A stretch of DNA of 63,785 nt, counting the filler, from Psammoneis japonica (lineage: Eukaryota), in the NCBI GenBank assembly GCA_008632985.1. It is 4 parts of 4 records of this genome, joined end to end, with 100 filler letters (N's around TTAATTAATTAA, not from the genome) between each part and the next. Parts side by side here need not be neighbours in the genome. Positions count along the whole stretch, not along the records: positions 39,552 to 58,732 come from QPGO01000462.1; 3 more parts are not named here. The stretch is one strand, 5' to 3'. The stretch's first letter is position 1. Each line of letters opens with the position of its first letter. Positions 1,811 to 63,785 of the stretch are shown here, piece by piece. The translations under genes were made by a program, and so were the position numbers. The notes beneath the pieces were generated by a model, which saw only the letters and a list, made by a program, of their open reading frames with translations, searched no databases and was not told the DNA's origin.

Positions 1811-1811
1811 C

Positions 1812-14692: not shown

Positions 14693-14762
14693 GCAACCCA
14701 GCTCTCACAGGGTTGCCACAACCTGAGAAAAGTCCCTCAAGATTGCTCAAGGTGTGTGCTGT

Positions 14763-14856: not shown

Positions 14857-14884
14857 CTGTTTCTCTCTTGTCCTGGTTTTGGGC

Positions 14885-24185: not shown

Positions 24186-24194
24186 GGACATGTT

Positions 24195-31563: not shown

Positions 31564-31798
31564 GGTCTCAAGCGGTGTCATCTTGAGCAGCATTGCCTTG
31601 AGCATCATCGTCTCAAGTGGTGAATTGCAGTGTCTCGAGTGCTCAACATCCAGTCTTGAGTGGCAGGCGCCATCTTGAGTGGGGCCCCTGGCAAATTTTG
31701 TCTTGATTGGCTCTGTGCTGTCTCGAGCGGCAAACATCCAATGTCCAATCTAACGTGGCATCATCTCGCGCAGCATCCACCTGGCCTCAAGTGGTGTC

Positions 31799-39451: not shown

Positions 39452-39551
39452 NNNNNNNNNNNNNNNNNNNNNNNNNNNNNNNNNNNNNNNNNNNNTTAAT
39501 TAATTAANNNNNNNNNNNNNNNNNNNNNNNNNNNNNNNNNNNNNNNNNNNN

Positions 39552-42139: not shown

Positions 42140-42990
42140 GTGATTCCAAAGGCAAAGATGTTTTCTGTTGTAGTGGTGTTGGTTGTGGTTAGCATTTACA
42201 ATCGACTACTCGACTCGGACATTGCGCGACACAAAATCTTTTATGTCTTTGGGTCCTTCTACTTTTGCCCTTTCTTCTTTATTTCATATTTGCTCATGGA
42301 TGACGAGATTGGTTTGGCCAACCAACAACCCCACCCGACTCGTTGGGATGGATCAGCTATTGCTCCATTGAATCCTTTGGCTCCGTTGTGGTATCGCTCT
42401 TTTGGTCCTTCGCCAACTCCAACTTTTCGTTGGAGACAGCCAAGGCCTGTTACGGAGCATGGTGGCCACGGCCCAAGCCGGAGTATCCTTGGTCCTACTG
42501 CGTGGTGAATCGATACTGTGCGACTTGGGGTCCTGCCAAGTGTTACCTTGTTGGTGCACTCGTACACTCTTGCCGCAGTTTACCATGTGCACCTGTATTC
42601 TCATTTATGGGGTGGCCCGAAGAACAGCTTCTTTATGGTTGAAATGACCATTGTTGATTACACCGTGAAGGTGTCGACGCGAGACTACTTTGGCGAAGGC
42701 ATGAGTTGCCACATCCTGATACCGGAGACCACAGCATGTCGCAAGACGCAACCGCCGCCTGACGCTCCTCTCGTTCCCGCGCTCTGTCTGGTTGTCGTTA
42801 TCTTTGTCTGACTTCATCCGACCCTTAACGTCGTGTTTGCAGCCATGATGATGCTCAAGGCTTGTTCCTACGCCTTGAACAATCCTACCAAGGAAACGCT
42901 CTACAACCAACCTCGCCCGCGGTCCAGTACGAGGCATTGTCGTGGATTGATACCTTTGGTGCACGTGGAAGCAAGGCAAGCGCAAGCTCG
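42140..42990 (+). pseudogene. Nucleotide transporter (NTT / TLC ADP-ATP carrier family) fragments with frameshifts and deletions
   Basis: [81 protein letters not shown]. Confidence 0.85.
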
Positions 42991-43339
42991 TCTCATACTT
43001 GTCACCACGAATATGGTGAAGGGTATCCCGCAAATGTTTACGGTTTTTCTTTACCTTTAGGCTGTCGGCAGTGTTGTGACGAACGCCTTCTCTGACTCTG
43101 CGTCGTCCTTGGTTGCAAACGGTAGCTTGGTGGGAATGATGGTCGCCTCCTTTTTGATTTGGACTGCCCGCTGCATGGGAAAGAGAATGCACCAAGAGCG
43201 GATATATTGTCGGAGGTGACAATTGTGAATAGCAAAATGGACAATGAAGAGAAGAATTTGGAAATGGCCATGGTGCAGAACGAAGATAAGGATGCAAGTT
43301 GTGCCATTGGTGGCACGAGACTTGGGATTACCGGCGCAA

Positions 43340-43830
43340 CATTGGTATTGACACGGGGTTGCGGTATCAATACTCAAAACGACATCGGGGCATGGAGGCA
43401 TTTTGGCTGTAAACCCAATCCACAGTCCTTGTTGGATTCGCTTGAAGCGGATGGAACGAACAATAATATATTTGATATGCATCGTCAAGTGTCCGGTGCC
43501 ACAGGTGTGGGTGATTCGTATTTTAACAACAACGGACAGTCTGAAGCTACAGACAGTAATGACACCAAGGAATACTTACTCGTGACGAGAGAAGATACTG
43601 TTCGGGCATTGTATTTGGATGGGCTCGACATGGTGATTGTTGTGGGACGTCCCAATGGACCAGATGAGTACACTCATATTGCTGGAAGAACGGGACGGGC
43701 TGGACGGCGTGGCAAGGTTGTTGCTGTGGTTTCAGAAGACAACGCCGCGGCTTTGAAGTCGTGGGAACGCATGCTGAATGTGACCTTTGAGCTACTTGAC
43801 ATGGGCAATGTAGCAACGATCTTGGCGTGA
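43340..43830 (+). pseudogene. DEAD-box helicase C-terminal domain fragment
   Basis: LLVTREDTVRALYLDGLDMV..P..DEYTHIAGRTGRAGRRG (motifs V-VI); no motifs I-III upstream. Confidence 0.75.
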
Positions 43831-44241
43831 AATCTTAGAAATGATATGAACCAAAAGTCTCGCTTTGATGTTGGAGCTTAGTTGCCGGAGAGAGCTTGTG
43901 CACCAGCTAGTAATCGCGCTGATACTGATTTATCACTGTTGAGTTGCAATGACGGCTATTTTAAATACCATGTGTCGTTAGTAGGTTATGAAAGTACCTA
44001 CAAAGGGCTAGTAGAGTGTGCTACAGTACGACTATTGTAGAATGTAGCCCTCTCTAGGGCTGCATCGGCAACCATATGGTAACTACATAGAGCCCCTTAG
44101 AATAACGAACGATCATGATAATATTGTACTATACTTTCCGCTCGAAGCTAACTAATAACATATATCCCCTCGACGCTAATCGAGACTCACTAACGTCTCA
44201 ATTCCATTCAATCCCACCTAATGTCTGATGGTTCCGGGTGC

Positions 44242-45321
44242 TTAAACAACGATTCGAAAGGCGAGCCTGATTTGTTTCAAAGTTGTGTCCCAACTTCCAA
44301 TGGCAGGTTCGGGCACCTCAGCAGTGGTCTCGGGTTCTTCCCAGGGTTTCAAAACTGGTAGAGAATCTTGCAGAACGTTCATCAAACGCATTGACGTATC
44401 AAACACTTTCTTTTCCCAATATTTAGCCTTCCACTCAATCGTTGAGCGACAGTCAGACAGAATTGGGTCCAGAAACGAGACCTTTTCGAAAAGAAGGTTC
44501 GTCTGAGTCTTTGCTAGCGTAGTCAAGCGTGTCGACAATTCCAAAACTCTCTTCCCCCAATGTCCAACGCTCGATTTGATCTCAGAGAGATGGTTAGACA
44601 AGATTGGGTTCCGAAAAAACGGCAAAAAATTATCGCGTTCCTGAAGAACGAGTGCCTGAGTCTGGATTTGTGCGATGACGTCGTTCGAAAGTACGTCTAC
44701 AAGTTTCCACCAAAGCTGAAACGCTTCCGACTTGATATCCGAAAAGATGCTGCACGTGTCCGACAAGAAGGCCGACTGGATCTCCAAAAATATCGTGAAC
44801 GTATCTTGGAACGGGACTGACTTGGTCTCAACCGTGCTGTCGGGAGTGGTGTTGTGAAAGATGTGCTGGAGGCTGCCGTTGGAGTCGCCATTGTTGTCCT
44901 GAACAAAATATTCATAGACACAATACTCGTTGGCGTCTTCTGCTGGTACAATCGTGGGCGTGGTATTGCGTAGGAGGTCTTGGACGCGACTCGGAGACTT
45001 GTCGCCGTCGTCAAAATAAACGCAGAAGCCGGAAATGATGATGGCGTTTTCAAAGGGAACAGTGTTGGGAGCGTCGTTGCTGATGATGTTATGGTAGTAG
45101 CTGGAGGTAGTGTCGATATCTGAGTAACGGGTGTTGTCCAAAAACTTGCGTAAGAGCTCTTGGTTGATCGTGGCGATGCTGTCGGTCGCCGTGGTGGCCT
45201 TGATCGACAAGGCGCTAACGCCGCGCTTTGCCGCATCAACAAACGAGGCAGAGAGAGGACTGATAATGGCACCAGCGCTCATGGCGGCTATGATAGCAAG
45301 GACAAAGTTCATGATTTTCAT
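44242..45321 (-). CDS. Hypothetical protein (~359 aa) with N-terminal signal peptide
   Basis: Long ORF in normal-composition DNA; hydrophobic leader MKIMNFVLAIIAAMSAGAII; normal Tyr content; decayed paralog at 58.3-58.7 kb. Confidence 0.7.
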   Translation of the reverse strand: MKIMNFVLAIIAAMSAGAIISPLSASFVDAAKRGVSALSIKATTATDSIATINQELLRKFLDNTRYSDIDTTSSYYHNIISNDAPNTVPFENAIIISGFCVYFDDGDKSPSRVQDLLRNTTPTIVPAEDANEYCVYEYFVQDNNGDSNGSLQHIFHNTTPDSTVETKSVPFQDTFTIFLEIQSAFLSDTCSIFSDIKSEAFQLWWKLVDVLSNDVIAQIQTQALVLQERDNFLPFFRNPILSNHLSEIKSSVGHWGKRVLELSTRLTTLAKTQTNLLFEKVSFLDPILSDCRSTIEWKAKYWEKKVFDTSMRLMNVLQDSLPVLKPWEEPETTAEVPEPAIGSWDTTLKQIRLAFRIVV

Positions 45322-45599
45322 GATGGACTGTGAACTGACGAGCAATTCAGAAATTGTGAGAGCACTCGAACGAGGAGAGATTCTGTCTGCAATGGAGGCG
45401 CCGTCGTACACGTAGAAATCTACGTGGCGTGGGCCGTTTCCCAGTTGCATTGAAGTTCGAAGAAAGTTTCGCGATGGTTATTTTGGCGCAGTTGGTGCTC
45501 CTATCGAGCTTAGATGATCGTGCTATTCCACGCAGCCAGCACATTAATTCTAGAGCGCCAGGCTGTCTCTGAGAGGTTTGACTCTGCTCACCACTTTCC

Positions 45600-48139
45600 T
45601 CTCCTGACTTACAAAGCAGCATTTGGAGCAGGAGTGAAGAGGTTTTCTGTGGTTTTGCAAGCAAGAGCTGATCCATTCTTCACTGACAGAGGCCAAGAAA
45701 AATCGGCTGGGGCACGCTCAGCTTGTGCCTTCCAACTGTGCTGGTGGTGGCTTCAGGGAGGATGCAGTCCTGCACTTGCATCAGTCTTGTTGAAAGCTCA
45801 TGCATTTGATGACACTTGTGAGATCTATGAGTTTGATGGAGTGGTGCCAAATTGTGAGTTGTTTGAGGCATGTTTGACGTGCGCTCTCTCTCAGCGCACG
45901 GTGCCTCAAGAAAGTTCTTTGAGGCCACTTCGGTGCTGCAGGTCCTTCATGTGGCTGCAACATCAGGACTGACAGTTGCAACCATTGCAAGGAAGGAAGA
46001 GTGCACTTGTCTGGTCAGGAAATGGAGCACTGTGCATCCAGAACAAATTCTTTCCTTGTTGGGCAACACCCCCCCTTCTTGTGCGCCCGACGACTTTTTT
46101 CATCACCTTCAACCAGGAGAGTGCAGGTCATTTGTGTGGATGAGAAGGTGATGAGTTGCTGAGGCAGATGCCAGAGGATCTTGGTGTGGATGCTGAGAAT
46201 CTTGGCCATCTTGTCTGTTCTGCTGCGAGTTCATTTTGTTGCCAAGGACAAAAGGTGTCATGTGCAGTTGTCTCAAAGCTGCTGAATCATTTGCATTGAA
46301 TGCAACAGGGATCATCTTTCATGACCCATGGCATGGTTTGAAGAAAGAAGAGCACTGCTCAGCATGGCATGCTCCCATCCATGAGTTGCACAGATGTCAC
46401 ATCATCCACAGCATGGTCGCTCTCTCAACGCTCCTGACCATGCAGAGGACTCAGGGGAATGCAGCACCAAAGGAAACAATGCAACCTGTGCCACTCAAGC
46501 ACTCTTCATCCAGTGTGGCATTGTTGCACCTTTTTTGAGTCTTTCCCTTGCCCTTGCACACATGTCATCCACAGCAGGTTGGTTGAGCGAAGACAAACTC
46601 AAGCACAATTCAGGACCGGAACAGTCTGCGTGCCTTTTGGGGGTGGTCTGGCCCTTGCTTGCACAGGGATTCCCAAGCATTGGACAGCTGTGACATCAAA
46701 ACACTTGATGCATTGAGGGACTGCACAGTGGAAATTGTTGGTTTGTGCATGTTGCAAGCTGAAATGTGCAAAAAGCACCCAAATTGTTGCAGGACAAGGA
46801 GTTCGTAAAGGCACATGTCACACAATGGGGAGGGATGCGCTGCCAGGCAACACACTGCTGACTGCAAAGAGCTCTGCAATTTGCCAAATCATCAGACAGA
46901 AAAAGTGAAGAGGAAGAAGCATCCTTGAGTGCTCATGAAGCATGTGCACTGGGCCTTGGGTGACTTTCTTGTGGTTGGAGACAGTGACTGGTGGATGCAA
47001 GGCAGAGGAAGAACAAGTCTTGCACTTGGAGACTGGGTGTGAGCAGCACACGATTGGCCATTCACTTGCAGAGAAGCGATCATGGCATTCAGCCAATTGC
47101 ACTGGGAAACCAGTCAAGACTTGTTGATTGCATCCTTGGGTTTTGTGGAGTTTGTTGTGGCTGTGCAAGAAGGCCTTGTCCTCCCTCAAACAAAGTCTTT
47201 CCAAGCTTGAAATCCATCAACCCCAATTGCCTGACAGTGAGAAGGTGTGGCGCTCACACATGAAAAGATTGGCGCCCTTTCCAAGGCCACAGGGCACAGT
47301 CAGAAAGCAGAAACTGCCTTTCAAGAAGCTCTGTGGATTTGCAAGCTGGTGCACGGCAAAGATCATGAGCTGGAAGGGGCTGTTTTGCATGAGCTCAGTG
47401 ACTTCTTGGCAGATGACATGGGTGATTGTGATCAGGCAATGAGATGCCAAGCTGTGGCACTTGGTGTTCCTTGCAAGAGCTTGGGGCTGGCTTGTGAGGA
47501 CATTGCAGCCACTCTTTGCACAGCATGGGATTCATGCTGCACATTCAAGATGAGCCAGAACAAGCTTCACAATGCTTTGAAGAGGCTTTGAACATTCAGA
47601 AACTACGACTTGGCAAAGACTCCAAGGAGGTTGGTGACACGCTGAACATGATGGGCTTCCTGCTGGCAAGGCGTGGAGAAATGGATGATGTGAACTCATT
47701 GCTTTGGGATGCTCTGAGAATCCAGAAGCACCAAGAAGATCTCATTAAAGTGTGCGAGACTCTCAAGAACATCAGAAACGTGCACAGAGAGAAGCGCAAA
47801 CATGATTTTAATGCCTTGTGCTGTGAAGAATGTCTCCACATTCGAAGAACCGAGTTGGGTGATGGTCACGAGAAGGTTGTAGATGCATTGGTTGCAATCG
47901 GCAACATTGGCAGTGACACGGAAGAGACGGAACCCGCAATGCAAGAAGCGTGCAAGGAGGCGCTTACGATTCGAACCATGGTTTATGGTCGAAACGACGA
48001 CAAGGTTGCTGCCGTACTTCAACACATGGGAACCATGGAGTTTCGATCGGGTGACTTTGACAGCGCACAACGCTGTTTGGAAGAATTTGTACGTATTCGC
48101 CGTGAGAATCATCAAGCCGAAAAGCACGTAGCTACATAG
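45600..48139 (+). pseudogene. TPR-repeat (kinesin-light-chain / NPHP3-like) gene remnant; 5' extent uncertain
   Basis: TPR-like units clear at 47250-48139 (FEEALNIQKLRLG..VGDTLNMMG; EECLHIRRTELG..V.DAL..IG; KEALTIRTMVYG..KVAAVLQHMG); frameshifts; strongly decayed upstream. Confidence 0.75.
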
Positions 48140-48477
48140 CTACAGTACCGGGTAGTAAGAATATCGCTATTCTTCTTCCCATAACCCTCGAGTTCGTGGA
48201 AAGCCATGCCAGGATTGCAAAATATGCTTTGTAATAATATCCAATTATCAGGTACATCTTACGTTGACTAGAGACTACCCCATTTAGTCTAAAAGAATGT
48301 TATCCCGCACAATCTTCTCTAACATTTGTATAGTCAACGTCAGCAGACAGAAGTCTATGACTAAGAGTCTTCCCACATTTCAGCGTCGTGTCAATCTCGG
48401 CAATACAGAAGTGCGCGCTGTCGTTGACTTGGACACCGACATGAAGACGTGTTGGGCCCCCCTTGCGTTCAACAAAT

Positions 48478-48882
48478 TCAATTACCGTCGCCATCCATTG
48501 CAGTATCTGGTGCGCAGCCATCAGCGCTGTCCATCGTCAACGGCGCAGCATCAACGCCAGTCATCATTCCGACGACCTGCTTGAGACATTCCATGTTCCG
48601 CTCCTTGTGTTGGTCGTTGATCTGTTGGATACCTTTTCGATTGCCGCTGATGCAGGTTTCCAACGCCTGGTTATTCTTGTCCTGCGTGTCGGCCAATGCC
48701 TGCTTCATTGCCTGGCTGTTCTTAGCCTGCGTGTCCTTTCGAGCTTCATCATTTGCAGATAACAAAGCAGCGGCAAGAGTGTTGGTTTGTTGGGTGTTAT
48801 TTCCCATCATTCTTTCCATCATATCAAACAAATGCTCATTCCGATGGCGTTGGGGTGTCTCTCCGGTGCCAGTAGCGTGCAT
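48478..48882 (-). CDS. Hypothetical coiled-coil-like ORF (134 aa)
   Basis: Protein-like Gln/Asn/Ala-rich composition in normal DNA; no recognised domain. Confidence 0.35.
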   Translation of the reverse strand: MHATGTGETPQRHRNEHLFDMMERMMGNNTQQTNTLAAALLSANDEARKDTQAKNSQAMKQALADTQDKNNQALETCISGNRKGIQQINDQHKERNMECLKQVVGMMTGVDAAPLTMDSADGCAPDTAMDGDGN

Positions 48883-49097
48883 GATTTGAATAAAGAGCCG
48901 ATAAACCGCGGAGCGAGTGGTCGTTGTTACTGTAGCCCTACCGGCATTGTTTGAGTGTTGCTGTGAGCGCGGAGGGGGGGGATTGTGCGACGGTGGATGG
49001 CTTGAACCTCATGCGTAGATTCTACGCAGAAAATGTACTGAAAAAATGATGCATTCTCACTCGCAAAACTTTATGTGTGTATACGTTCTGAATAAAT

Positions 49098-49251
49098 ACA
49101 TTGCGATGTTTTCGTCACGCGAAATTAATGAATGTGTTCGGTCTTTAATAACACATTGCGATGTTTTCGTCACGAAAAACGATGTTTTCGTCACGCGATA
49201 ATAAATGAATGTATCCCTGCTTTAAGTACACATTGCGATGTTTTCGTCACG
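49098..49251. repeat. Four exact copies of CGATGTTTTCGTCACG
   Basis: At 49104, 49159, 49180 and 49236; three are preceded by ACATTG. Confidence 0.9.
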
Positions 49252-50149
49252 GATTCAATATATACAGTTTGCATACTACGAAATGCTAATCAATTGGGCG
49301 ACTCCGTTCGCGCAGCCGCCAATCACGTAGAACCACGTAGAATTTGTACCAAATGCCGTTGCACGTTCCTTTTTTTCTCCCCTCCACCTCCGATCAGTGG
49401 TGCTTTGTACCGTACGAGTCGAGTAAGTTAGAAGCAATTGATCAGTACACAGCATGGAGATCGAAATGGGTATTTCAACCTTTGCTTCCAAGCAGCATGC
49501 TGAATTCATGGCGGCATCCAAGGCACGGTATTCCATAAATTTGTGGTGCACGAGGGTAAGGCAAAAAGAAATATGATGTTTATGGAAAAGAAGTAATCCC
49601 ACTTGAAATGTGTGCATGTTATCCTTGGTTGACATTAACGGAAACATGGCTCGCCTTGATTCACTTGCAGTGTTGAGCGACGAGGAGAATGGCCAGAAAG
49701 TTGAGGGCAACAACACGATCATAGAGGATACTGAATTGCACCAAAAAACGCAAAGTAAAGAGTGAAAAGTCTTCTCAAACTACCGTAGTAGTCAAGACGA
49801 TTACGCATCAAAACCTGCGCCAACAGATAGAAAGAGGGTGCGATATCTCAGTTGACCGAATGGGTCGGCCAATATGTTGCTGAAAAGGTTGTTGCAATGC
49901 TACTTAATTTTGGAAGAATGCGGTAGCGAGGGACGAGGAAATGATGGTAAAGCTATGGAGAAAAATGTCACATTGCCACCAATTACAGAGAAAACAGTTC
50001 GACCCGACTTTTTCGAGTTTGTCCTATCCAAAGAGAACGCAGATACGAGCATGGCGATCAAGGAAATCTGCGTTTGGCGTGGGTTTCGCATTCTCTGCCG
50101 ACGAACGATTATATTTATCTGACCGATTTTTTTTTTCTTTTTTATCCTC

Positions 50150-50747
50150 CAGTTTTTCATAGGCGGCTCGTAAGAACAAAGATAAGCAGTGCAGTTCCAC
50201 CAGACTGTGCTCCCAAATCTAAGCCTCTGATTTTTGATGAGGACATGACTTTCAATGTCGACCGAACCGTGATGTAGAGTACGTACGAGGAGAAGTCATC
50301 GGATTCTGTGAGGTTACAGAGCGACAGTTTGGACTAGGGGAACCGTATGATTCTGAAAATGGACGTGGAAAAGCCGTGGTCAAGAGCGCTCGCAAGAGTG
50401 GTATCGGTTCTAATCTTGTAGATGCATGTGAGAATGCTGTGATCGAATGGGACGAAAACTGTTCACGTAGATACAATGAGATTATTCTGGAAGTGGAAGC
50501 AGCTATTCCCAAGGCGCTGGATTTCTATGAAAAAAGAGGGTACTAATCAGTGTTTGACAATCCGGCAAGCCGAAGATTTGATACGAGCGGATTTGTCTTG
50601 CGTCGTGCACAGTGTAACAAGATTTGCATGCGCAAGACACTCGATTTTCGTCGTGCCCTAAAGGAGAATGAAAAAGACAAAGCAACCCTCGGCGACTTGG
50701 GGAAGAATATATTTGGAAAGCTTAACATGTTTCAAAGCCGCAGCTAG
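50150..50747 (+). pseudogene. GNAT acetyltransferase remnant
   Basis: GEVIGFCEV..ARKSGIGSNLVDACE..IILEVE..ALDFYEKRGY followed by in-frame TAA at 50544; frameshift near 50270. Confidence 0.75.
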
Positions 50748-50912
50748 TCTATCATTTGAAGATTTTGCAGAAGACTTATCAATAGTGGCGAATCCATCAC
50801 GGAAACAATTCTGGATTCGCCAGCACTGCATCAACTGAAGTCGTATCAGACAAAAGGTCGTCTGTGTCTTTGCAGCGACTGCTCGTCTCTACTTGTGAAG
50901 GATCCTTGTGAC

Positions 50913-51830
50913 TTAAGCTTTGTATTCCTCTTCGTCTGAAATCTCTAAATTGAGCAAGGCTTGTTCAAACGCTGCATCATCCAGCTCTTCTAGCTTCTTC
51001 TTATCCGCCGAGACACTTGCCACTTTCTCGTTTAGAAGACTTGTTATGTCCAGAGCTGCAAGCTGTTGCTCAAACAAAACGTCTTGGATATGCTTACAGA
51101 TCTCCGGTGGTAGTGGCACTGGCGCCCCGCGGAACTGCATCATTCGGCACTCGAGGATCATGACAAGACTGGACACACGATTTGCTCTGCAGATCAACCG
51201 TCCACAAAATGTTGTTGCTCTTGTGTGCACGGCCTGTCCGCTCACACCATCGATCACGGCACATTTTGATGGGTGATGGACTTGGGACTGTCAGCATTGT
51301 CACTGTCGTTGCATGTGCTCTCATCCAGAGACCAAACCTGAATGGCGCCCTCGACACCACCACGAGTTCCAAGTTTGTGAAGAACGAAATCATCTGGCAA
51401 GGGAAAAGGTGAATTTTTGACTCCAGATGAAGACACAAAGCTCCTGCTTTTGGCTTTTGATTTGCTGGGATGCGACGAGCCATGTTGAAGCGGCTCGGCT
51501 TCAGCATCCTGCTGTTGTAAAATTGGAAAGTCCATCAGAGCACCAAGAGCAAAACATGAGATGTTTCAGCCTTCACCTCTCACTTTTTGTTTCACACGAA
51601 TCCAACAATCGCTCCATGCAACTTGCCACATCTTCTTTTGCCAACCTCTCCAACGCGTCGCCATTGTCAAGATTGGCATTCTTTAATTTCCACTTCATGT
51701 CAGGGACGTAAAAGCACGTGTTGTCAAAACCATCAGGAAATGGAAATTGGTTGCCAGACGCCACTCTCAGTGAGGCAAATGCTGGCTTTCCAAATTTCAA
51801 TGAACCAAGCAACCGTGCTGAAAGAGTCAT
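50913..51830 (-). pseudogene. Decayed hypothetical gene; 3' end intact-looking, 5' part mutated
   Basis: Successive protein-like ORFs 51573-51830, 51254-51535 and 50913-51257. Confidence 0.45.
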
Positions 51831-52134
51831 CGCTTTCGTGCACAGATGCCCAAATCAATGAAGCAAGTCTTTTGCTGAGTTCTTGGAGGTGTGACAAGCA
51901 AGTGAAGGAACTCAACATGTTGCACAGCGGACCTGGATTTGATTGCTGCTGCTCTACAGGACAGAGCCAGGGTTGGCGCCAATGATGCTCCAGTGTGCAG
52001 CCTGCTCAGCAAAAAATTGGTCTTTGACAGCCAGGAGTGGCCCTTCATCAAGCCACTCAATTGGGCCATGCAGGAGGGGAGTGGATGTGAGGGGCTTTCT
52101 TTCCTCTTGTCATGACCCTGAAGAGGCTGGCCAA

Positions 52135-52399
52135 GCTGCCCCGCAAAAGAACTCCGGAAAACCAAATTTGCGCAGAAGGAGTGCGCCAGGGCCCCAGCAG
52201 AAATGCCAAATGAGTCCGGAGTGTCCAGAAACTGCGTAAATGAGTCCGGAGTGTCCAGAAACTGCGTAGAATCCATCGTAGAATCAGCGCCAGGGATGTC
52301 AAAAAATCACAAAATTCCGGACTTGTTTGGCAGTTCCACTGGGGCCCTGGCACTTCTTCTGCATAAATTTGGTTTTCCGGAGTTCTTTTGCGGGGTGGC
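52135..52399. mobile_element. MITE-like foldback with ~80-bp inverted arms and an internal 30-bp tandem duplication
   Basis: ccccgcaaaagaactccggaaaaccaaattt..gccagggccccag..agtccgga (52139-52220) is inverted at 52316-52395. Confidence 0.82.
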
Positions 52400-55300
52400 A
52401 AGGTGCAGCTGCCACTCAGAAGAGCTGCACACATGCCGAGAATGCTGCCATGACATGCACTGGATGTGCTCACTTTGCTCTTGACTGACAAGTCCTCCAC
52501 CACCTCCTGAAAGCAAAAGACAAACTCCAAGATCTTGGAGAGCCAGCGCAGCTGGCTGAGACCAAGCAAGTTGCAGACTTCCTCAAATGAACATCTGACC
52601 CACAACATCAAGTCATCAGGAAGCAGCTGGCCAAAGGGATGCATTTGCTCTTGGTTGGCTTTTCATGTGCAGCTGTCTGTGGCCCTTGTGCTGCAGGGAA
52701 CTCAACTGTGAACTCTCCAGTCATGGATCTGACTTTTTCTGTGGGCTGGTTGCAATCCCCAGCATTGTTCTCTGCCTGGTTCAACAACAACAAAATGAAA
52801 CTGCAACACTTGCTTTCAATGCATGTGAGAAGCACAGCAGCATGTTTCCTTCATTGTCATGAGACCTGCTGCCCCTCTGCTTTTCTCACTGCAGTCATTC
52901 TGGACAATGTGGCCATTGGTTGACACTGCCTGGAAAGTTTGATGGTTCCCTTTCCCATGCCTTTGTGTTGTCCTTGAATTTCCCAATGCAAAAATCCTCC
53001 ACAACCTTGCTTTTGACAGACCAACACACGAGGGGAAAGGATCAGCAAAATTGCTCCACAGTGGACAAGAGGCAGGTTCAACATTTCCACATTGGCATGA
53101 AAGGCATGAAATGCTGAGATTGAGAACAAAAACTAAAGAAAATCAAGACACAAAAGGGGGCACAGAGAAGCCAATTTGAATGTGGACATTGCCGCCTGTG
53201 CAGCAAGAGGACAAAACCAGCCTTGTGCAATGTCTCCTTTGCAACTCTTGGTTGACAGTCAAAGGGAAAAAACACAAGCCATCCAGAGTCCAGAAAAACA
53301 TCATTTTTGGAACTCCACAAGTCCATGCCTGTTCTCAAATCTCCAGCACCTGGGGATTGCTTGACAAGCTGATGCTTGTCATGACTGCCGCCAATGCAAG
53401 TCACATGACTCTGGATCAAACAAAGAGCTGTGTCATCCTGGATGACCCTTTTCTCCGCTGCAATGTGCGGAAGAACACAGCAGACATGCTCTGTGGCCAC
53501 CTGGGCAATTGACAATTTCAGCCATCATGGTTCTGAGTGATGCTTTTGCCCACTGCCACAATTCCTTCAGTTTTGCACACAACACATCAAGCCCACTTCA
53601 TGCAACTGAGATTGACACATTTGAGTGCTGTCTGAAACAAAGCTGCTTCAAGTGTTGATGAAAACTGAAAACCCAAATGAGCTGAAATGAGCCATTGTCC
53701 AGCAGCTTTGGATGGAGCAATGTCTTGCAACTTGCAACTTGAGTTGCTCTCTGATCTTCTGTCATGAATCTGTGGCACAGGTTGCTTCTGTCCACATCTC
53801 TTCCTCATCTTGTTGCTTCAGTCTTGAAATGCGGGCATGGCAGTTGTCACCAATTGCTGGACAACAACAATTTTGTTCCACATTCTGGACTCAGCAGGAG
53901 CAACACCTGTGCAGCGGTCTTTTCTTCTGGTGGTTTGGCACTGTGTGTTGCAGTTTGGACAGCAAACAGCAGATTGCAACTCTCACAACCAATGGTGGAG
54001 CATTCCTGTGCAACATTTTTCTGGGGGCAAACAGCAAGTTTTTTCTCGATGGCACACTGCAGCATTGGCGCACTTTCTTTCCTTTGTTGAAACATGTGGC
54101 ATTTTTGGTTGAAACCAGCCCATGACATCTTGTTTTCCACTTGCAAACATGTGGTGGGCCCCCTAAAAAGAAACCCCACGTCAGTGCTTGACCAACCAGC
54201 GTGAACATCTGGGGGCAACTCCACCCACACTGCCACTTTTGACATGTCGCTCTCAACGAGTGCATGATGTGCCTTTTTGTGCACTTTGGTCATGGAGGCA
54301 TTTGCGACCTTTGATTGGGTGGAGACAACAACAGCAAAAAGGCATGAGAAGCACAGCAATGTGAGTGAAAGCATCCAAAGGAAAAAGTTGAGCGGCACAA
54401 CCGCTGTGCCACATGTTTCTGATGTGACTTGGAAAGATGCTGTGCAGTTGAGTTGCTCACCCACATGGCCCCTCCATGCAGACTCTGGCTCGTGGCATGC
54501 AGTGGTGCATGCCATGCACCAGTGCTCACGTCATCAGCACAGGCACTCACATGGCCTTGGCACTCAGTGCAGGCAGCAAGCAGCGGGTGCTCGCACAGCA
54601 TCAGCAATCAGCAAGCAAGCAAGCACATGGCAGCACCGTTGCTCACATCATCAGCACAGGCACTTGCACAGCATGGCGCAGGCACTTGCTTGTTGCGTGT
54701 GATGCAATCGCTGGCAGCCAATGGAGTTTTTTCTGTGCAACCATGATGAACGCGCAATGATTCTGACAGCAACAAGTTGGTTTGTTCTCAACAGTGCATT
54801 GTGGAACTGCCATGTGTTCTTTTTTTCATTGAAGCACGCAACCTTTTTGGTTGAAAACAGTGCGAACATCTTTTCATCGGCTTGCAAACATGAACCACCC
54901 AAACATGAGATCCAGGAAGAAAAAAGGATGCAGGCAGGGAGACCACGACACAAAAGCCTTTTCTGGCTTTATGAAAAACATCATGAGTTTGTGTCTCAGT
55001 TTCCACACAGACATTTGTTTGAGGCTCTTGTGAAGGAACAATCTGCCAGAGATGAGTGCATCACAGAGAAAGAGATTGCCATCCAAGAAAACAAGCAAAA
55101 AAGATCCTTGCATTTCTTCAAGCTGTTGTCTTGAAAACAGTTGGAGATGCCGGAAAGGTGATGCNAGTCCAAGTCGAGAAACGGTCCACTGCAAGTGACA
55201 ATGCTGTTGATGTCAAAATGAAAGACACCAGTGACATTGACACATCCTGGGGCACTGGCTCAACAACAATGGAGGTTAGAGGGGGCTGGCAACACATTGA

Positions 55301-58279
55301 ATGGAAGTGCTTCCTGTGCTGTCACCACCTTCAAACTGAGCCGTTGTGCAGTGTTCCCTCTGCATGTCATGATGGCAACAATCAAAAAGGCAGTTTGCAT
55401 GAAAACAAGACTGAGCACTCAAATGCCATCATTGAGTCAGACGAAGGGCCATCCAGTGGTGTTTTGGAACTGTCTTTGTACATTCTGATGTGCAGTGCAA
55501 AAAAGCAACACTGGTGCATTCCAAAAAAGAGATTTGGCAAAAACCAGCTCAAAAATCTGTTGTTGTTCCTCTTGAAATCAACGTGAATTGTTTGTTTGTG
55601 CTGTTGCCCACTTCACCCCCAAGTTGCCTGCTGTCTGGCATTTGCCTTTTGTGTGTTGCGCGACACTGTGATCTTGGGTTGGCTGAACATTGTGGTGCAC
55701 AACTGACAACCGTGAAGATGCCGAGCACGCATTTTTCACAGATCAGCAGTTGATCTCTGCATCTCAACCATGGAGGCTAAAAGGTGAAGCACAAAGAGAA
55801 GGAAGGCTTTTCAAGACACGTCTTTGTCATCAAGTGATGAATCAGAGAGTGGCTCATCTCAGATCACAAAGAGGAAGATGGCCAAGGCCAAGAAAGACAA
55901 CCCGGCTGATTCCGCATTTAATTTCCAGTTTGCACCTGTGATTCTTCAATTTTCCAGTCACTGGAAAGAAGAAAGTTTCATTCAATGACAACTTCTTGGA
56001 GGGGAAAGTGACAATTGGTCCTGATGATGATTGGACCGCATTGCACTCAGCCGCAAAGGGTTTGACAATGGAAGAGAAGCTTGAGGCACTGCAAACAAAA
56101 GAGAAGAGAGAGCCAATCCCATGTCTCTTGAATTTGAGCTGGTTGAAGCACTCATTGTGGGGGAAGGTGACATTGTGTGTGGCAGTGACAAGTGTGAAGC
56201 AGGTGGGGAAAATTGGGGAAACATTGGTCAGTCGCACAATGTCAACAGCTCTGGCACGTGCATCATGCTGCACTCCATCTGTCAAACATTGTGGCAGGCT
56301 GTCTGTCAGCCATTGTGCCAGGTGCACCACACTGCATTCTGTCCATTGACCATTGCAGCAAGTGCAACAAACTCTGTTCTAATCTGCTGGAAACATTGCA
56401 AATTTAAGTTAGAGACGGTGCTCTTGCTTGCCGCCACGGCAAGCACATGCCTCCATTGCCTCGTGTGCTCTGAGATTGGGCCCTGGTCTTTGCAGCTCGG
56501 TTTCCTTCTCAAAAGAGGCCGCTGAAGGGCAATGCTTGCAACTGGGGACCTGACAATGACAGCAAGTTGAGCGAGCCATTTTGGGAGTGATGCTGTCAAN
56601 NNNNNNNNNNNNNNNNNNNNNNNNNNNNNNNNNNNNNNNNNNNNNNNNNNNNNNNNNNNNNNNNNNNNNNNNNNNNNNNNNNNNNNNNNNNNNNNNNNNN
56701 NNNNNNNNNNNNNNNNNNNNNNNNNNNNNNNNNNNNNNNNNNNNNNNNNNNNNNNNNNNNNNNNNNNNNNNNNNNNNNNNNNNNNNNNNNNNNNNNNNNN
56801 NNNNNNNNNNNNNNNNNNNNNNNNNNNNNNNNNNNNNNNNNNNNNNGCTCCTGACAAACTTTTCAATGAGTGGGTTGCTCTCTTCATCTCTTGCATTGCC
56901 CTGAGGAACAATGTCGCAGGCCTCCTTTGTGAATCCTTTGATGTCACAAGCTGCAAGCAATGAATGCCAAGCCCATTTGTTGATCTCAAAGGATGTTGAT
57001 CGAACAGGAGTTGCACCTCGTCAAGACCACCAGCACCATCGTCTTGATGAATTTTGATCTTTGTGTGACTCATCCAAGTGTGACAGCATTTCAGGTCAAC
57101 AAGCTGCAGCCTTCAATGCTTGGAGATGCGACTGCATTTCTTTCTTGTCCATTTCCATGGCCTTGTTTGTCACAACNNNNNNNNNNNNNNNNNNNNNNNN
57201 NNNNNNNNNNNNNNNNNNNNNNNNNNNNNNNNNNNNNNNNNNNNNNNNNNNNNNNNNNNNNNNNNNNNNNNNNNNNNNNNNNNNNNNNNNNNNNNNNNNN
57301 NNNNNNNNNNNNNNNNNNNNNNNNNNNNNNNNNNNNNNNNNNNNNNNNNNNNNNNNNNNNNNNNNNNNNNNNNNNNNNNNNNNNNNNNNNNNNNNNNNNN
57401 NNNNNNNNNNNNNNNNNNNNNNNNNNNNNNNNNNNNNNNNNNNNNNNNNNNNNNNNNNNNNNNNNNNNNNNNNNNNNNNNNNNNNNNNNNNNNNNNNNNN
57501 NNNNNNNNNNNNNNNNNNNNNNNNNNNNNNNNNNNNNNNNNNNNNNNNNNNNNNNNNNNNNNNNNNNNNNNNNNNNNNNNNNNNNNNNNNNNNNNNNNNN
57601 NNNNNNNNNNNNNNNNNNNNNNNNNNNNNNNNNNNNNNNNNNNNNNNNNNNNNNNNNNNNNNNNNNNNNNNNNNNCATTGCAACAAAAGAATCAACACAA
57701 TGGATGATTTTGGCAAAATTGTTGCCGTCACTTTGAGTTGTCACACAACAATTTTTTCTGTGATGCTTGCTCTCTGGCATGAGCTCCAGTGCAAATCTCT
57801 GTGTGCAATGCACTGACGTGCAATCCACATTGAGTCCACTGAGGGAGTTTGTGATGCATGTCCAGGAGGACCATGAAATCAAGAATGCTTTTTGTTTGTT
57901 CCAAATGCCTCTTTCCCCAACATTGCCCACTGTCTGACAACAGCCTTTTGTGTCTCAAACAACGTCGTGCACTTGGTGTTGTTGAAAATGATGGCCCACA
58001 AACAACATTCAGTGACCTGCCAAGCACGGATTTTCTTCTCTCTGGCAGTCATCGGCCAAGCAAAAGAGCAACCTAAATGGACTGTGTTTTGTTGAACTGG
58101 CCAATTCATTGCCACAAAGATCAACCTGCTCTGCACAGGTGTGGTTTGCCGGAGGTTTTCAGCAGGCAATCATTTCATCAATTTTTGTTGGCCTTGGGTG
58201 AAAATGCCATCCGCATCTGAGCTGGTGCTAAAACTCAGTGCTCAAACCCATGTCAGCAAGCGAGTGATCAACAGCTGGA

Positions 58280-58732
58280 GTGTGCTGCTGCAGCGCACTT
58301 CAGAGTGCAGCACAGGGCTGCAACCATGTGGTTGACTGCATGGAGACCTTTGTAGAATGGCAAACAACCATGATGACATTGCACTGCACTTTCTGCCAAA
58401 GCCAGCCAATGACATGAATCCTTGATGATGCAATCAAGACTCACTTGTGTCTTGACAACATTCTCACCACCTGACATCCAATGCCTCCAGGTGCTCAAAC
58501 AATGGCTCAAAAGGCAAGCACCTGATTTGTTTCAAAGCTGTGACCCAACTTCCAGTGGCAGGTTTGGGCACTCAGCAGCATTCTCGGTTTTCTTCCCAGG
58601 GCTTCAAAACTGGCAGAGAATCTTGAAGAATGTCCATCAAATGCATTGACATGCAAACACTTTCTTTCTCCAACATTTGGCCTTCCACTCAATTGCAGAG
58701 TGGCAGTCAGACAGAATTGGGTCCAGAAACAA
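58280..58732 (-). pseudogene. Hypermutated duplicate of ~44010-44480 (3' end and downstream DNA of the 44242-45321 gene)
   Basis: cagtcagacagaattgggtccagaaac is identical in both copies; colinear for more than 400 bp. Confidence 0.93.
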
Positions 58733-58832
58733 NNNNNNNNNNNNNNNNNNNNNNNNNNNNNNNNNNNNNNNNNNNNTTAATTAATTAANNNNNNNNNNNN
58801 NNNNNNNNNNNNNNNNNNNNNNNNNNNNNNNN

Positions 58833-60783
58833 TGCCCAAACCGTATTGGCAAGGGCTTGAGGCTTAAACTTTTCCAATTTCTGTATGGACACTCGGGCAA
58901 TGTTGCTCAAAAGCAACGGAGACGAATGGTCCAATGGTGGCATATGCCCAAACCGTATTTGCAAGGTTTTGTGGGTTAAACTTTTCCAGTTTCCGCATTG
59001 ACACTTTGGCAATGGCATCAAAAAGCAACGGAGACGAGTGCCCAACGGTGGCATATGCCCAAACCGTATTGCAAGTTTGCGGGTGGAACTTTTCAAGTTT
59101 CCGCATTGACACTTCGGCAATGCATCAAAAAGCAATTGAGACGAATGTCCAACGGTGGCAAATGCCCAAACCGTATTTGCAAGGTTTTGCGGGTTAGACT
59201 TTTCCAGTTTCCGCATTGACACTTTGGCAATGGCATCAAAAAGCAACGGAGACGAATGTCCAATGGTGGCATATGCCCAAACCGTATTTGCAAGGTTTTG
59301 CGGGTTAAACTTTTCCAGTTTCCGCATTGACACTTTGGTAATGGCATCAAAAAGCAACGGAGACGAGTGCCCAACGGTGGCAAATGCCCAAACCGTATTG
59401 CAAGGTTTTGCGGGTGGAACTTTTCAAGTTTCCGCATTGACACTTCGGCAATGGCATCAAAAAGCAATGGAGACAAGTGTCCAACAGAGGCAAATGCCCA
59501 AACCGTATTCGCAATATCTTGAGGCTTGAACTTTTCCAGTATCCGCATTGATACTTTGGCAATGGCATCAAAAAGCAATGGAGACGAATGTCCAACGGTG
59601 GCAAACGCCCAAACCATATTCGCAAGGGCTTGAGGCTTGAACTGTTCCAATTTCCGTATGGACACTTCAGCAATGGTATCAAAAAGCAATGGAGACAAGT
59701 GTCCAACAGAGGCAAACGCCCACACCACATTCGCAAGGGCCTTGGGTGGAACTCATCAAGTTTGGAAATTGATGATTCAGCAATGGCATCAAAAAGCAAT
59801 GGAGACGAATGTCCAACGGTGGCAAACGCCCAAACCATATTCGCAAGGGCTTGAGGCTTGAACTGTTCCAATTTCCGTATGGACACTTCAGCAATGGTAT
59901 CAAAAAGCAATGGAGACAAGTGTCCAACAGAGGCAAACGCCCACACCACATTCGCAAGGGCCTGGGGTGTGAACTCATCAAGTTTGGAAATTGATGATTC
60001 AGCAATGGCATCAAAAAGAAACGGCGATGAGTGTCCAACGGTGGCATATGCCCAGACCGCATTAGCAAGGCTTTGCGGACTGAAGAGGCTCATCTTTGGA
60101 ACTGATGCCATGGCGAGTTCATCGAAAAGCTCAGTTGAGGATTGTCCAGACTTTGCAAATGCCCACATGGTCATGGACAAACCCCTTGGAGAGAGACTGC
60201 CTTTTACTGCACGCACTCGCCCTCCCAATTCATCCCAAATGGCTGTCCCAAACTTTAACCTGCTCACGCTGGATATTTTTGCTAGAGAATGTGCAATCGA
60301 ACCAACCGAGTCAGAAGCATCACAGTCTATCACTTTCATGGNNNNNNNNNNNNNNNNNNNNNNNNNNNNNNNNNNNNNNNNNNNNNNNNNNNNNNNNNNN
60401 NNNNNNNNNNNNNNNNNNNNNNNNNNNNNNNNNNNNNNNNNNNNNNNNNNNNNNNTCATTTGTCGCTTCTTCTGGTAAATGTCAAGAACTCCAGAAACTC
60501 TTTCGATGTTTCTTAGGTCGGGTAATCTCCAATTTCGGTTGGCATCGCATCGCTTTTGTTTTGTTTGAGGCCCTCTTGCCCCTCTTGCATCACGCCTCTT
60601 GGAACGATTTCCATCACTCCTCCTACCACCATCTTCACTTTGTTGGGTCGTCATGAAATAAGGCGACGCATTTTCCCTCCAAAACGCCAAACGACTCGAC
60701 TGACAAACATGTCGATGAATCGGCACGTATCCAACAACGCTGTACAGCGCCAACAGCAGCAACAGCTTTCTCATCCCAAACAT
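58833..60783 (-). CDS. Helical-repeat RNA-binding protein (OPR/HPR, RAP-associated type), about 12 37-aa repeats, N-terminal signal peptide; gapped, 3' end missing, several 1-bp frameshifts
   Basis: Unit FxPQxLANxVWAFAxVGHxSPLLFDAIAxxSxxKLEx with ~111-bp period; leader MRKLLLLLALYSVVG-YVP. Confidence 0.85.
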
Positions 60784-61657
60784 GTGCCACGATCTTTGAA
60801 GTCTGCAAAAGCCGTTGAGTCAAATTCTCTCGTTTCTCTCTTGCAACACAATGATTGAGAATGGCAGCTTCAGCTTGTTAACCGCAACACTCAATGCAGT
60901 TTTTGATGTGCCTTACGTCGTTGTGGGTCGGTTTCTCAACACTTGCACTCCCCCGGTCTGTTCCTCGCCCCTGCGCGAGCGGGGGTTGTTCGACGCCGGT
61001 TGCATTGTAGAAGAAGCGGTGTGCAAGACTGCAAGCGCCAAGCAGAGCCGCAGCAGGCTTCAATTTCCGGTTTCTGTGAGCCTTGTTGCCAAGCTCATCC
61101 AACTGGACTTTGCTGGTCACAACAGGGATGAGTCGACTCTCAAGGTGTCAACCTGCCCAAGCTGAGCAAATTGCTTGTGGGGCCTGGCCTCCACATGCTG
61201 ACAAATTCACAGCAGAGAAAGAGCCTCGTCACCTGCAGATGCCAGGGCCCTGGAGGGGCTTGATGATGCAAAGGTTGCAACCACTGTTCGAGTGATGCAA
61301 CAGCCCAATGATGATGGGCTGCACACTGTGCTCTCCAGAGCCAAGCAACGTTGCACGCCCCAGTGCTGTTGTTTGTCATGCAGGCAGTGGTGTTGGGGGC
61401 AGTGAAGGGCGCAGGCCATTGGCACTTAGACTTGCCAAAGTTGACATGTGCTCCCATCGTGCCAGGGATTGCAGAGACACCCACACACCAGTCTCCAGCA
61501 CCTGTGCACATTGCAGTGCCCAGGACAACAGAAAACACCGTGTGCAATGGGCAGCGCAGCAACAGGCTCAACACATCCTGTGGGAGTGACTGAGTGAGTG
61601 ATTGCACAGTGTCAAAATGCAGTGTGTTTGGGACAACATTGCACTGCCTGCCAACTC

Positions 61658-63785
61658 AAAAAAAAAACCAATCTGCATTTAAAGTGCTGTCACTCCCTTG
61701 CCAGCTGAGCCGGCACCGGCAGACCCACACTTCCAGTGCACCGTCAAGTGCGGCAGAAGCTTGCTTGGATCAGCCAGAACGTGGGTGCCACCAAGAGATG
61801 ACACCCCTCCAAATTTAGTGAGTGCTGCAAAGTCTTCACGCTTTGCCTTCTTGAGGCCGCGTCTGCATTCTTTGCCACAGCAGATTCATGGTCCGTGAAG
61901 CAGAGTGGGGCATGTGATCATTGACTGAATCTAAGAGCACATCCCTGTCTTTGGCAAGATGTTCCTGTTGTTTGTTTCACACAGCCACAAGCTCAGCTTC
62001 CACCTGTTGGTGCTGAGATGATTGCCTTGACTCTGCGTCATGGCCATGAACCTCTCAATTGTGTTCTTCCCAAAGTTCCCACCAGAGCTTCCAAATGAAA
62101 GTTCCTGTCTGCACTCCCCAAACCAGAGGCGGACGATTTTCCCTGCAACACTTCTCCAGCAGGCCCATCTTGCAAAGGCGCATCTCCTGAGAAACATTTC
62201 AAAGGGTGGAAACCTGCCGACAAACACTTGTCACTGTCCTGTTTCTGACGGGGCTCTCCACAGCACTTGCAACATTGGGGCAGCATCTGACTCGTGCATC
62301 ATCTCACCTCGGAACCATGCTTCAATGGATGTCAACAACAAATCTCAAAGATGTGGCATTGTGTCAATTTTGTCACAGTGTTTGCACAGACCTTGTGAGA
62401 ATTTACAACATCAGGCCTCATTCTCTGGACAGCGTAGAGTGTCATGATTGCGATCTTCCATTGGGCTTTTGCATGCAAGACAATGATGTGGCCACACTGG
62501 ATTGCATTGACGAGTGATTTTGTTTGCAGGAAGAAGTTCATGGATGAGTTTGACGGTGGACACGTGTTTCTTGGAGTGCTGTTGGACAAGAGTTGCGTGA
62601 ACATTCCAGTCAATCTTCTCCATGGTTGATTCATCCCAGTCGTTCCATTCCCAAACACATGCAAGGAGAGCAGGAGCTGTGGCGGTGTGTCGAACAGTGG
62701 ATTTCAGTCCTGCAGCAACAGCTCCATCTGCAAGGCTCAGGTGCAATTGGCAGCAGGAAATGGGATCACCACCTTTGTGTCAGATTCATGTTGGCCTTGA
62801 TGTCATCCTCTGCCAATTTTTCAGCATGCACATTGACTTGAGCGTCAAGTGGGAGAGTTTCAACTGGAGAGTGTCTGTCCTGGTGCCCTTTCACCCACTC
62901 GATTGCGGAGCCTGACCTGGGAGGAGGAGTTGAGAACTTGTTTGGTGGCTGTGAGCATTTGATGTGTTTCATTGATGACATCCCAGTTGGATGACAGTGC
63001 ATTGGCATTGTGCTGACGTAAATGAAAATCTCTGTCGGACCGCTCTTGTGCCGAAGGGTCAATTGAAGGGCAACCATGAGACAGTCTGGTGGAAAGCACC
63101 CAAACCAAGGCCTTGTTGTCACACCAGTTGTCAACCCCTTCATGCAATGACATCTTGCAGAACTCAAGCAAACAAAAAGCAAACCATGCAAGGGACAAGA
63201 AACCATGAGCCTTGGTGCGATGAGATTGACGGCATTTGACCAAATGCCAGACCAGCGCAGTCCACCAAGGGTCTGCCCTTGAATGTGACAGTCCATCCAA
63301 AGGTTGCATTCTGATGAACAACTGAACCATTGCTGCCTGCCACAAGGTGACATGATGCAAAATGATCCACCATTTCTTAGAGAGAGGTGTGAAATTTGAT
63401 GGCAGAGAAGAGAGTTGACTCCCAGGAAGGCAAGGCATGCAGGCAGTCTGCAAAAAGGTCAGGCAAGGGAGTGCTTGTTTCCACCAAGAGTTTTGGGCAA
63501 TGAGGCACATGTTTCCATCGTTGATCATGGGTGGTGACCATCTTGTCTGGGAATGATGAGTCAAAGGGGGAGGGAACAGTCTTGGTCTGATGCAGCAACA
63601 TCGTTGCTGTGCCCTGGACCAAAAACACATCAAAATGGTTGGAGATCAAATGTGCAAGTGCGATTCTTCTGGAGACCAGCATGCAGAGGATTGCATCCTC
63701 ATCTTAGAAGGGGAGCCAGCCAGTCACCCAAGGGAGCCTTCAGGCAAACTGAGTCTTGACGACACAACAACCCGCACACAAACGC
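61658..63785 (-). mobile_element. Second Ambal-like LINE (RNase H to 3' end), continuing beyond the window
   Basis: AGSNGSV..ATFGWT, WCDNKALV, NWDVINE, EWVKGHQD, AQVNVHAEKLA, CLACKSPMEDRNH..RC; 3' UTR homologous to 31460-31563, ending GG-T10. Confidence 0.88.

Follow-up and report, generated by a model that had tools for sequence, protein, structure and literature searches.

Can long stretches of a diatom genome lose one dinucleotide, TpA, almost completely, and if so, in which direction did the sequence change and what decided which DNA was hit? These questions are raised by a locus of Psammoneis japonica in which one of two paralogous copies of a segment has a normal content of TpA and CpG, while the other has lost nearly all of both. 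In an earlier note on this DNA, the two copies were taken as an internal control that gives the direction of change.

Composition of the window

The window, i.e., the whole stretch of DNA that was analysed, is 63,785 bases long and consists of four pieces whose sizes are in decreasing order.

1-19878, 19979-39451, 39552-58732 and 58833-63785: the four pieces
19879-19978, 39452-39551 and 58733-58832: spacers of 100 bp each (44 N, a 12-base AT-only linker and 44 N)

The spacers are joins between separate pieces, not biology, and features read across them would be invalid. The third piece comes from the record QPGO01000462.1 (assembly GCA_008632985.1, Psammoneis japonica). Given their decreasing sizes, the gaps and the presence of a 23-bp satellite, the pieces resemble small unplaced scaffolds. 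For two gene fragments described below, all the named homologues came from diatoms: a Bacillariaceae MAG and Pseudo-nitzschia multiseries for the TPR fragment, and Cylindrotheca, Amphora, Thalassiosira and others for the helicase fragment.

Arrays of the 23-bp satellite were observed in both orientations at 19979-20268, 20711-24167, 25757-25979, 26353-26792, 35209-36363 and 37265-37435, with some arrays situated at scaffold ends. The satellite has a GC content of ~0.33, its unit is without any TpA, and its TpA O/E is 0.02 (ApT 0.39). The presence of this satellite suggests heterochromatin. The block 2001-6000 (GC 0.61, TpA O/E 0.17, CpG 0.92) has a composition unlike that of the other TA-less DNA. 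At 58833-60339, on the minus strand, a gene consists of tandem repeats of 111 bp (37 residues) each, with an identity of 84-88% between units and with Pfam FAST_1/DUF1601 matches (heptatricopeptide-like); its TpA O/E, ~0.27, is only mildly low.

When TpA was counted in 1-kb bins over the window, the O/E value was at most 0.10 in 43 of the 64 bins and at most 0.25 in 54, while it reached 0.5 or more in 7. In 36.8 kb of TA-less DNA the values were 0.05 for TpA, 0.41 for CpG and 1.71 for CA/TG at a GC content of 0.496, compared to 0.64, 1.05 and 1.17 at a GC content of 0.464 in 7.7 kb of normal islands; the TA-less regions were picked by hand from the 1-kb bins, which makes the TpA value circular but not the values for the other dinucleotides and contexts. 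Gapless runs free of TpA reached 1,589 bases at 50% A+T. The pattern described in the earlier note is genuine and cannot be put down to chance, and it is part of a domain-wide erasure of TpA in a diatom.

Since TAA and TAG are absent from TA-less DNA, its stop-to-stop ORFs reach great lengths, and ORFs of several frames overlap. Such ORFs are spurious, and gene finders would over-predict in DNA of this kind. For example, an ORF of this type at 2859-5228 spans 789 codons and has no Pfam family. A Pfam scan covered 237 ORFs, of which 149 were of at least 110 aa (some of them from normal islands) and 88 were of 55-109 aa. The only matches it returned were to FAST_1 repeats, to TPR and to a zinc finger of the UL52 type, and heavy mutation may mask the origins of the DNA. 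A c-SKI match among the short ORFs (E=0.0012) was below the cut-off and was dismissed. No viral or transposon domain (reverse transcriptase, integrase, transposase, capsid) was found among the 237 ORFs, nor in an earlier scan of 15 TA-less ORFs. A role in defence against invaders is thus not evident from these ORFs.

Borders of the TA-less domains

On the third piece, TA-less DNA lies next to islands of normal composition.

39552-40690: TA-less, CpG-dense stretch
40691-45551: normal island, TpA O/E ~0.65 and CpG ~1.0
43342-43821, plus strand: SAP/DEAD-box helicase fragment, the C-terminal ~160 residues (~495-655 of 656; homologues ~650 aa)
45552-48089: TA-less domain, left edge abrupt for both TpA and CpG (45551/45556)
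48090-51111: second normal island, covered by contigs of run X2; includes the ORF of a GNAT acetyltransferase (50241-50546)
51097-51534, minus strand: ORF exactly at a TpA border, in which a primase zinc finger of the Herpes_UL52 type scores above the Pfam cut-off (E=4.7e-7)
51112-58732: TA-less domain with the mutated copy; its only Pfam match is the UL52-type primase zinc finger

The TpA borders of the third piece, at 40691, 45551, 48090 and 51111, are sharp. With such borders, and with islands at a TpA O/E of ~0.65, the loss of TpA is regionally restricted within the window. The islands include TA-rich non-coding DNA, with 21-23 TpA per 250 bp, that is situated at most 300 bp from TA-less DNA; we counted 44 non-coding TpA in 43802-44301 and 23 in 48052-48301. 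The UL52-type zinc finger at 51097-51534 is the only viral-flavoured match in TA-less DNA.

Contigs from two sequencing runs could be compared with the window. The public run X1 is possibly the source data of the assembly, and its independence from the window is uncertain; its contigs match 57902-58550 with 0 other letters. The contigs of run X2 look spliced (the kind of run was guessed) and are not taken here as a sign of expression; they cover only the normal islands, and one of them has a GT..AG joint.

A paralogous pair with one mutated member

Both members of the pair are located on the third piece, at a separation of 14 kb.

44242-45477, minus strand: 411-codon ORF with a signal-peptide-like start, without a Pfam family and without a homologue
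44012-44478: copy 1, unmutated; 230 bp of 3' flank and the last 79 codons of the 411-codon ORF; 31 TpA, 22 CpG
58276-58732: copy 2, a mutated pseudogene; 1 TpA, 2 CpG

Copy 2 terminates at 58732 because its piece of the window stops there. The local alignment of the two copies has 476 columns, with 359 identical, 28 gap columns and 89 mismatches, the latter made of 71 transitions and 18 transversions. At the 31 TpA of copy 1, copy 2 has TG 13 times and CA 12 times; one TpA was kept, and the remaining five sites show an indel or a different change. Among the 22 CpG of copy 1, ten correspond to TG and nine to CA, with one kept and two deleted.

We found that A:T>G:C transitions affected 25 of 60 A:T positions in TpA sites compared to 21 of 190 other A:T sites (Fisher p=6e-7), and that G:C>A:T transitions affected 19 of 41 CpG sites compared to 6 of 157 other G:C sites (p=1e-10). 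Sites outside TpA and CpG are thus much less diverged, and the equal divergence that would have spoken against the earlier note is not seen. As a bound set by saturation, the rate at TpA in the pair was roughly at least 15 times the background. The hand counts of that note were reproduced as well: within 44238-44480 all five TpA are gone (three to CA, one to TG, one at a deletion) and 10 of 11 CpG became TG or CA, and the flank strings quoted there are present in the alignment of the pair.

Two other suggestions found no support. A wider WA->WG spectrum had been hinted at; ApA sites changed in 12 of 72 cases compared to 9 of 118 for CpA and GpA together (p=0.06), and AA/TT is undepleted in the 36.8 kb of TA-less DNA (1.23 compared to 1.14 in the normal islands). 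The duplicated segment had been called host DNA, a doubtful label for a sequence that is without a Pfam family or homologue and is apparently multi-copy.

For the 411-codon ORF, no homologue was found among proteins of 226-720 residues, and none of 123 pattern matches in metagenome contigs was confirmed; therefore, the pair has no DNA outgroup from these sources. The summed depth of X1 contigs, a weak measure of copy number, was 1,684-2,201 over 44.4-45.4 kb, and over the ORF family it was ~8-35 times that of the flanks. Based on this depth, the family of copy 1 is probably multi-copy at an identity of at least 90%.

Direction of change

A comparison of two sequences gives no direction by itself. 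Copy 1 closes an intact frame of 411 codons, while copy 2 has four frame-breaking indels within 237 nt. A CGA codon has become the stop TGA in copy 2, the stop TAA reads TGA, and its coding part shows 21 non-synonymous and 11 synonymous changes. We also observed that copy 1 has the composition shared by all the genes that can be recognised in the window (TpA O/E ~0.65, CpG ~1.0), whereas that of copy 2 is like its surroundings.

An outgroup is available for a gene fragment in the TA-less domain that adjoins the island of copy 1.

47241-48139, plus strand: NB-ARC/TPR 3' gene fragment, a pseudogene identified by Pfam; ORFs 47241-47588 and 47498-48139

Its homologues, ~1,900 residues long and 61-65% identical, are collinear with it except for one frameshift near 47500. 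The fragment stops ~110 residues before the end of the homologues, right at the edge of the island. Up to 18 homologues were aligned to 47241-48112, and columns with Tyr in at least 60% of them were taken as conserved Tyr columns. All six such columns are changed in the pseudogene, to TGT, CAA, CAC, TGT, TGC and CAC. In conserved Arg columns the pseudogene has Cys, Trp, Gln or His at nine and Lys, Pro or Ser at three. These columns match the predicted changes TAY>TGY/CAY and CGN>TGN/CAN, with polarity given by the protein outgroups. The direction claimed earlier, from TA and CG to TG or CA in the 58-kb copy, is backed by three lines, the broken frame of copy 2, the composition of the two copies and the outgroups of the TPR pseudogene. 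The pair is a valid internal control: one member lies in an island that was spared, and its counterpart, which carries the derived states, lies in a TA-less domain.

The opposite reading would be that copy 1 gained its TA by RIP of the fungal type (CpA>TpA), or that the pattern is an artefact of sequencing, assembly or contamination. The possible tie of X1 to the assembly leaves some room for an artefact. On the other hand, the outgroups make TAY ancestral at six of six Tyr columns, the intact ORF and the gene-like composition of copy 1 stand against the indels and transversions of copy 2, and RIP would not give rise to CpG. Within one homologous gene fragment, and within gapless contigs, TA-less DNA passes directly into normal DNA, and X1 depth is even over both, at 63 for TA-less contigs and 60 for a normal contig. 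This reading is already largely refuted, and we consider it very improbable.

Strand symmetry and sequence context

The two outcomes at TpA sites, TG and CA, were about equally frequent in the pair (13 and 12), and in the bulk of TA-less DNA they followed each other at random, with a ratio of 0.99 for TG/CA runs. Equal frequencies and a random order in bulk argue against an RNA intermediate and against a single one-stranded burst. Within the pair, the order of TG and CA formed 9 runs compared to 13.5 expected (P ~0.05); a clustering of mutated sites by strand, borderline in the pair, was absent in bulk and was dropped.

In repeat pairs with both members inside TA-less DNA, we found adjacent CA<->TG swaps, eight in 456 columns in one case and three in 490 in another. 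Such swaps indicate that an ancestral TA (or CG) may have been resolved separately in each copy. TG<->CA swaps were also seen between X1 contigs and the window, at 46714/5, 46780/1, 46893/4 and 47164/5; as far as can be judged from these sites, a second allele or a paralogue of the TA-less DNA at 46.7-47.2 kb seems to have been mutated independently.

The TpA that remain in TA-less DNA are unevenly distributed among tetranucleotide contexts. RTAY (ATAT, ATAC/GTAT, GTAC) accounted for 2 of 124 remaining TpA compared to 117 of 350 in normal DNA and to 24% in a model of re-creation of TpA from CA or TG. YTAR (TTAA, CTAA/TTAG, CTAG) made up 67 of the 124 compared to 56 of 350. For the RTAY deficit as well as for the YTAR excess, the chi-square p-value was below 1e-16. 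RTAY appears nearly erased, and YTAR relatively spared.

Loss of CpG as a second process

The edges of CpG loss and of TpA loss differ at three of the four borders and coincide only at 45551-45556. Approaching the border at 48090, CpG comes back at ~47755-47843, which is ~250-330 bp ahead of TpA. Past the border at 51111, CpG extends for ~400 bp and declines after ~51500. These differences point to two processes that often share territory.

Since the stretch 39552-40690 is TA-less and yet CpG-dense throughout, TpA loss does not require CpG loss. Over the TA-less bins, CpG O/E varied from 0.02 to ~0.9. In two environmental diatom contigs, windows L006:1-2000 and L008:7001-7325 had CpG O/E of 0.13-0.25 and normal TpA, which shows CpG decay without TpA loss in other diatoms.

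With 19 of 22 CpG of the pair turned into TG or CA and an overall O/E of 0.41, the CpG to TpG/CpA loss has the traits of CpG decay, and judging from this pattern it is most likely due to deamination of 5-methylcytosine.

Location, pairing or age

What decides which DNA is hit? The earlier note held that only one copy had been mutated and took this as a sign of targeting by chromatin domain, not by pairing. For this pair the first statement is correct; elsewhere in the window both copies of other repeats are mutated. As to the second, a role of position is plausible, judging from the TA-less state of non-homologous flanks, the sharp edges and the normal TpA of copy 1, and a role of pairing keeps a small probability.

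A trigger of the RIP type, in which duplicated DNA would be sensed by pairing and then mutated, with copy 1 having escaped, could account for the repeats mutated independently in both copies, and satellites and repeated families are common in the pieces of the window. Still, copy 1 keeps a TpA O/E of ~0.66 despite its apparently many near-identical relatives, which seem to keep it too. The flanks of copy 2, without homology to copy 1, and the unique-looking TPR pseudogene are equally TA-less, and TA-less contigs are at the single-copy depth of X1. The TA-less flanks, the even depth and the TpA kept in the family of copy 1 together favour position over homology; we regard a pairing trigger as improbable and targeting decided by location as likely.

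It could also be argued that no targeting is needed. A strong genome-wide bias of TpA>TpG/CpA would then have acted everywhere, and the normal islands would be selected or recent insertions. Both islands carry ORFs or gene pieces and are the only DNA covered by X2 contigs. The 3' fragment of the helicase and the multi-copy-looking family of the 411-codon ORF would fit a young mobile insertion, and at the left edge of the TA-less domain (45551) TpA and CpG drop sharply at the same place, much as at an insertion junction. Indeed, the island 40691-45551 may be a composite or mobile insertion with gene fragments. Such a bias would, however, have to leave the TA-rich non-coding DNA of the islands intact and spare the family of copy 1 during a time in which copy 2 diverged by ~10% at other sites, and it does not agree with the normal TpA of gene-flanking DNA in 13 wild diatom loci. 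Therefore, we see a bias without targeting as unlikely.

These 13 environmental loci (~98 kb), taken around intact NB-ARC/TPR genes, contained no TA-less DNA, with the lowest 1-kb O/E at 0.30; chosen via intact genes, they sample gene-rich DNA only and have little bearing on heterochromatin. Either the process is not general in diatoms or it is absent from gene-rich DNA.

An effect of age is possible along with that of location. The helicase is present only as a 3' fragment, and the TPR fragment ends at the edge of an island; for these reasons the islands are possibly later insertions. With copy 1 and the normal islands having arrived later, the one-sided mutation of the pair would be explained. 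Whether location or age is preferred, copy 2 became saturated over a time in which the family of copy 1 escaped mutation elsewhere.

Proposed mechanism

Taken as a whole, the observations are best read as a region-restricted process that turns TpA into TpG or CpA in silent DNA of a diatom, accompanied by a separable decay of CpG. We give this reading a probability of about 0.78.

Under this reading, most of the window would be silent, heterochromatin-like DNA on small satellite-bearing scaffolds. A strand-symmetric process would change the A of TpA, on either strand, from A:T to G:C until TpA is nearly gone, and a second, separable process would turn CpG into TpG or CpA in many of the same regions. 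The choice of target would depend on where the DNA sits, or for how long it has been there, and not on the presence of a homologous partner. Chemically, the adenine of TpA would most likely be deaminated in DNA by an enzyme that prefers RTAY over YTAR, in line with the proposal made for Bigelowiella natans. The simplest form of it would be a putative enzyme that acts on DNA in silent chromatin and converts A to inosine, which is read as G. The favoured pyrimidine on the 3' side of the A is reminiscent of enzymes of the TadA type.

The same footprint could be produced without any deamination of adenine. If the thymine of TpA were enzymatically modified in silent chromatin, e.g., by an oxygenase of the JBP/TET type to 5-hydroxymethyl- or 5-formyluracil, it would mispair with G, and T>C changes on either strand would yield an identical, strand-symmetric conversion of TA into CA or TG. 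Thymine modification with a TpA preference is reported from dinoflagellates and from kinetoplastid telomeres. On the other side, the only experimental paper, on Bigelowiella natans, proposes in its available part an ADAT2-like deaminase instead, itself without a test (bioRxiv 10.64898/2026.01.13.699255). We consider thymine modification rather unlikely, though worth keeping in view, and adenine deamination remains the preferred chemistry.

A saturated footprint in a diatom would mean that a dinucleotide can be erased from tens of kilobases, and that such erasure is neither the peculiarity of one species nor limited to recognisable viral inserts. The footprint also offers practical handles. TpA O/E together with CA<->TG swaps could serve as a genome-wide marker, the strong excess of RTAY over YTAR among targets is a testable substrate rule, and the TpA process is cleanly separable from CpG decay.

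Comparison with known systems

Fungal RIP makes C>T changes mainly at CpA, creates TpA, depends on duplication and normally leaves its mark on both copies. The likeness to the present case is in a transition-only hypermutation of silent or repeated DNA that leaves a dinucleotide scar, possibly as a genome defence. The differences are that here TpA is destroyed, with TAY as the ancestral state, that the GC content goes slightly up (0.496 compared to 0.464), and that one copy, apparently with its whole family, was spared. C>T changes at CpA with an excess of TpA are not what we found, nor does the pair show dependence on duplication with both copies mutated, although in other repeat pairs both copies are mutated.

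CG-methylated silent DNA occurs in diatoms, and methylated repeats lose CpG by deamination of 5mC. The conversion of CpG into TpG or CpA in silent DNA is the same here. Such decay explains the CpG half only, with borders unlike those of TpA at three of the four edges.

ADAR hyper-editing converts A to G in double-stranded RNA with U preferred before the edited A. The A>G change and the preference for U or T before A are similar. ADAR acts on RNA, however; its edits would have to pass into DNA by reverse transcription, and they would then mark one strand. Here TG and CA occur in equal numbers and in mixed order, and DNA that is not from retroelements is hit. The strand asymmetry of A>G expected from ADAR is absent (13 TG and 12 CA in the pair; ratio of bulk runs 0.99).

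The closest parallel is the chlorarachniophyte alga Bigelowiella natans. Directed A:T>G:C hypermutation at TpA is almost unknown: the literature found holds one 2026 preprint on one alga. In the part of that preprint available to us, 231 of 302 nuclear point mutations in mutation-accumulation lines fell in integrated giant-virus and virophage regions, and the de novo mutations in two regions were almost all TpA>TpG/CpA, at ~1000x background (bioRxiv 10.64898/2026.01.13.699255). The same source gives 124 TpA-depleted clusters genome-wide and proposes an ADAT2-like deaminase (Mettrop et al., bioRxiv 10.64898/2026.01.13.699255). The words 'diatom', 'CpG', 'paralog' and 'tetranucleotide' occur 0 times in the available text of the preprint, which thus covers neither a CpG loss alongside that of TpA, nor a test of polarity by paralogue or outgroup, nor a wider context (bioRxiv 10.64898/2026.01.13.699255). 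A full-text literature search, with subscription-only papers outside its reach, found no report of TpA loss in a diatom. Among the literature found, and as far as its accessible parts go, B. natans is the only organism in which the TpA>TpG/CpA signature was demonstrated experimentally.

Several differences set the two cases apart, as judged from the available part of the preprint. B. natans is a chlorarachniophyte, and the organism here is a diatom, i.e., a stramenopile. The targets there are NCLDV and virophage sequences, whereas here no domain of viral or transposon origin was found in them; among them are an NB-ARC/TPR pseudogene of host type and scaffolds with satellite arrays. Depletion is nearly complete here, with an O/E of 0.05, compared to cluster cut-offs of 0.43 and 0.45 for the NCLDV there. 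The evidence there came from mutation-accumulation lines, and here it comes from the footprint in the sequence alone.

The likenesses, within the same part of the source, are close. In both cases A:T>G:C changes are confined to TpA, occur on both strands and are restricted to regions; in our pair, 25 of 31 TpA changed in this way, with TpG and CpA about equal (13 TG, 12 CA). The long-term trace is also the same, namely clusters that are depleted of TpA, enriched in CpA and TpG, and mostly unannotated. Tentatively, and with the odds against it, diatoms may carry a chromatin-targeted mutator that reads double-stranded RTAY, erases TpA beside CG methylation and is the same system as that of Bigelowiella. 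If this is true, a so far unrecognised, RIP-like genome-defence pathway of the A:T>G:C type would have an ancient origin and a wide distribution across the SAR supergroup, and a tractable group would be available for its genetic dissection.
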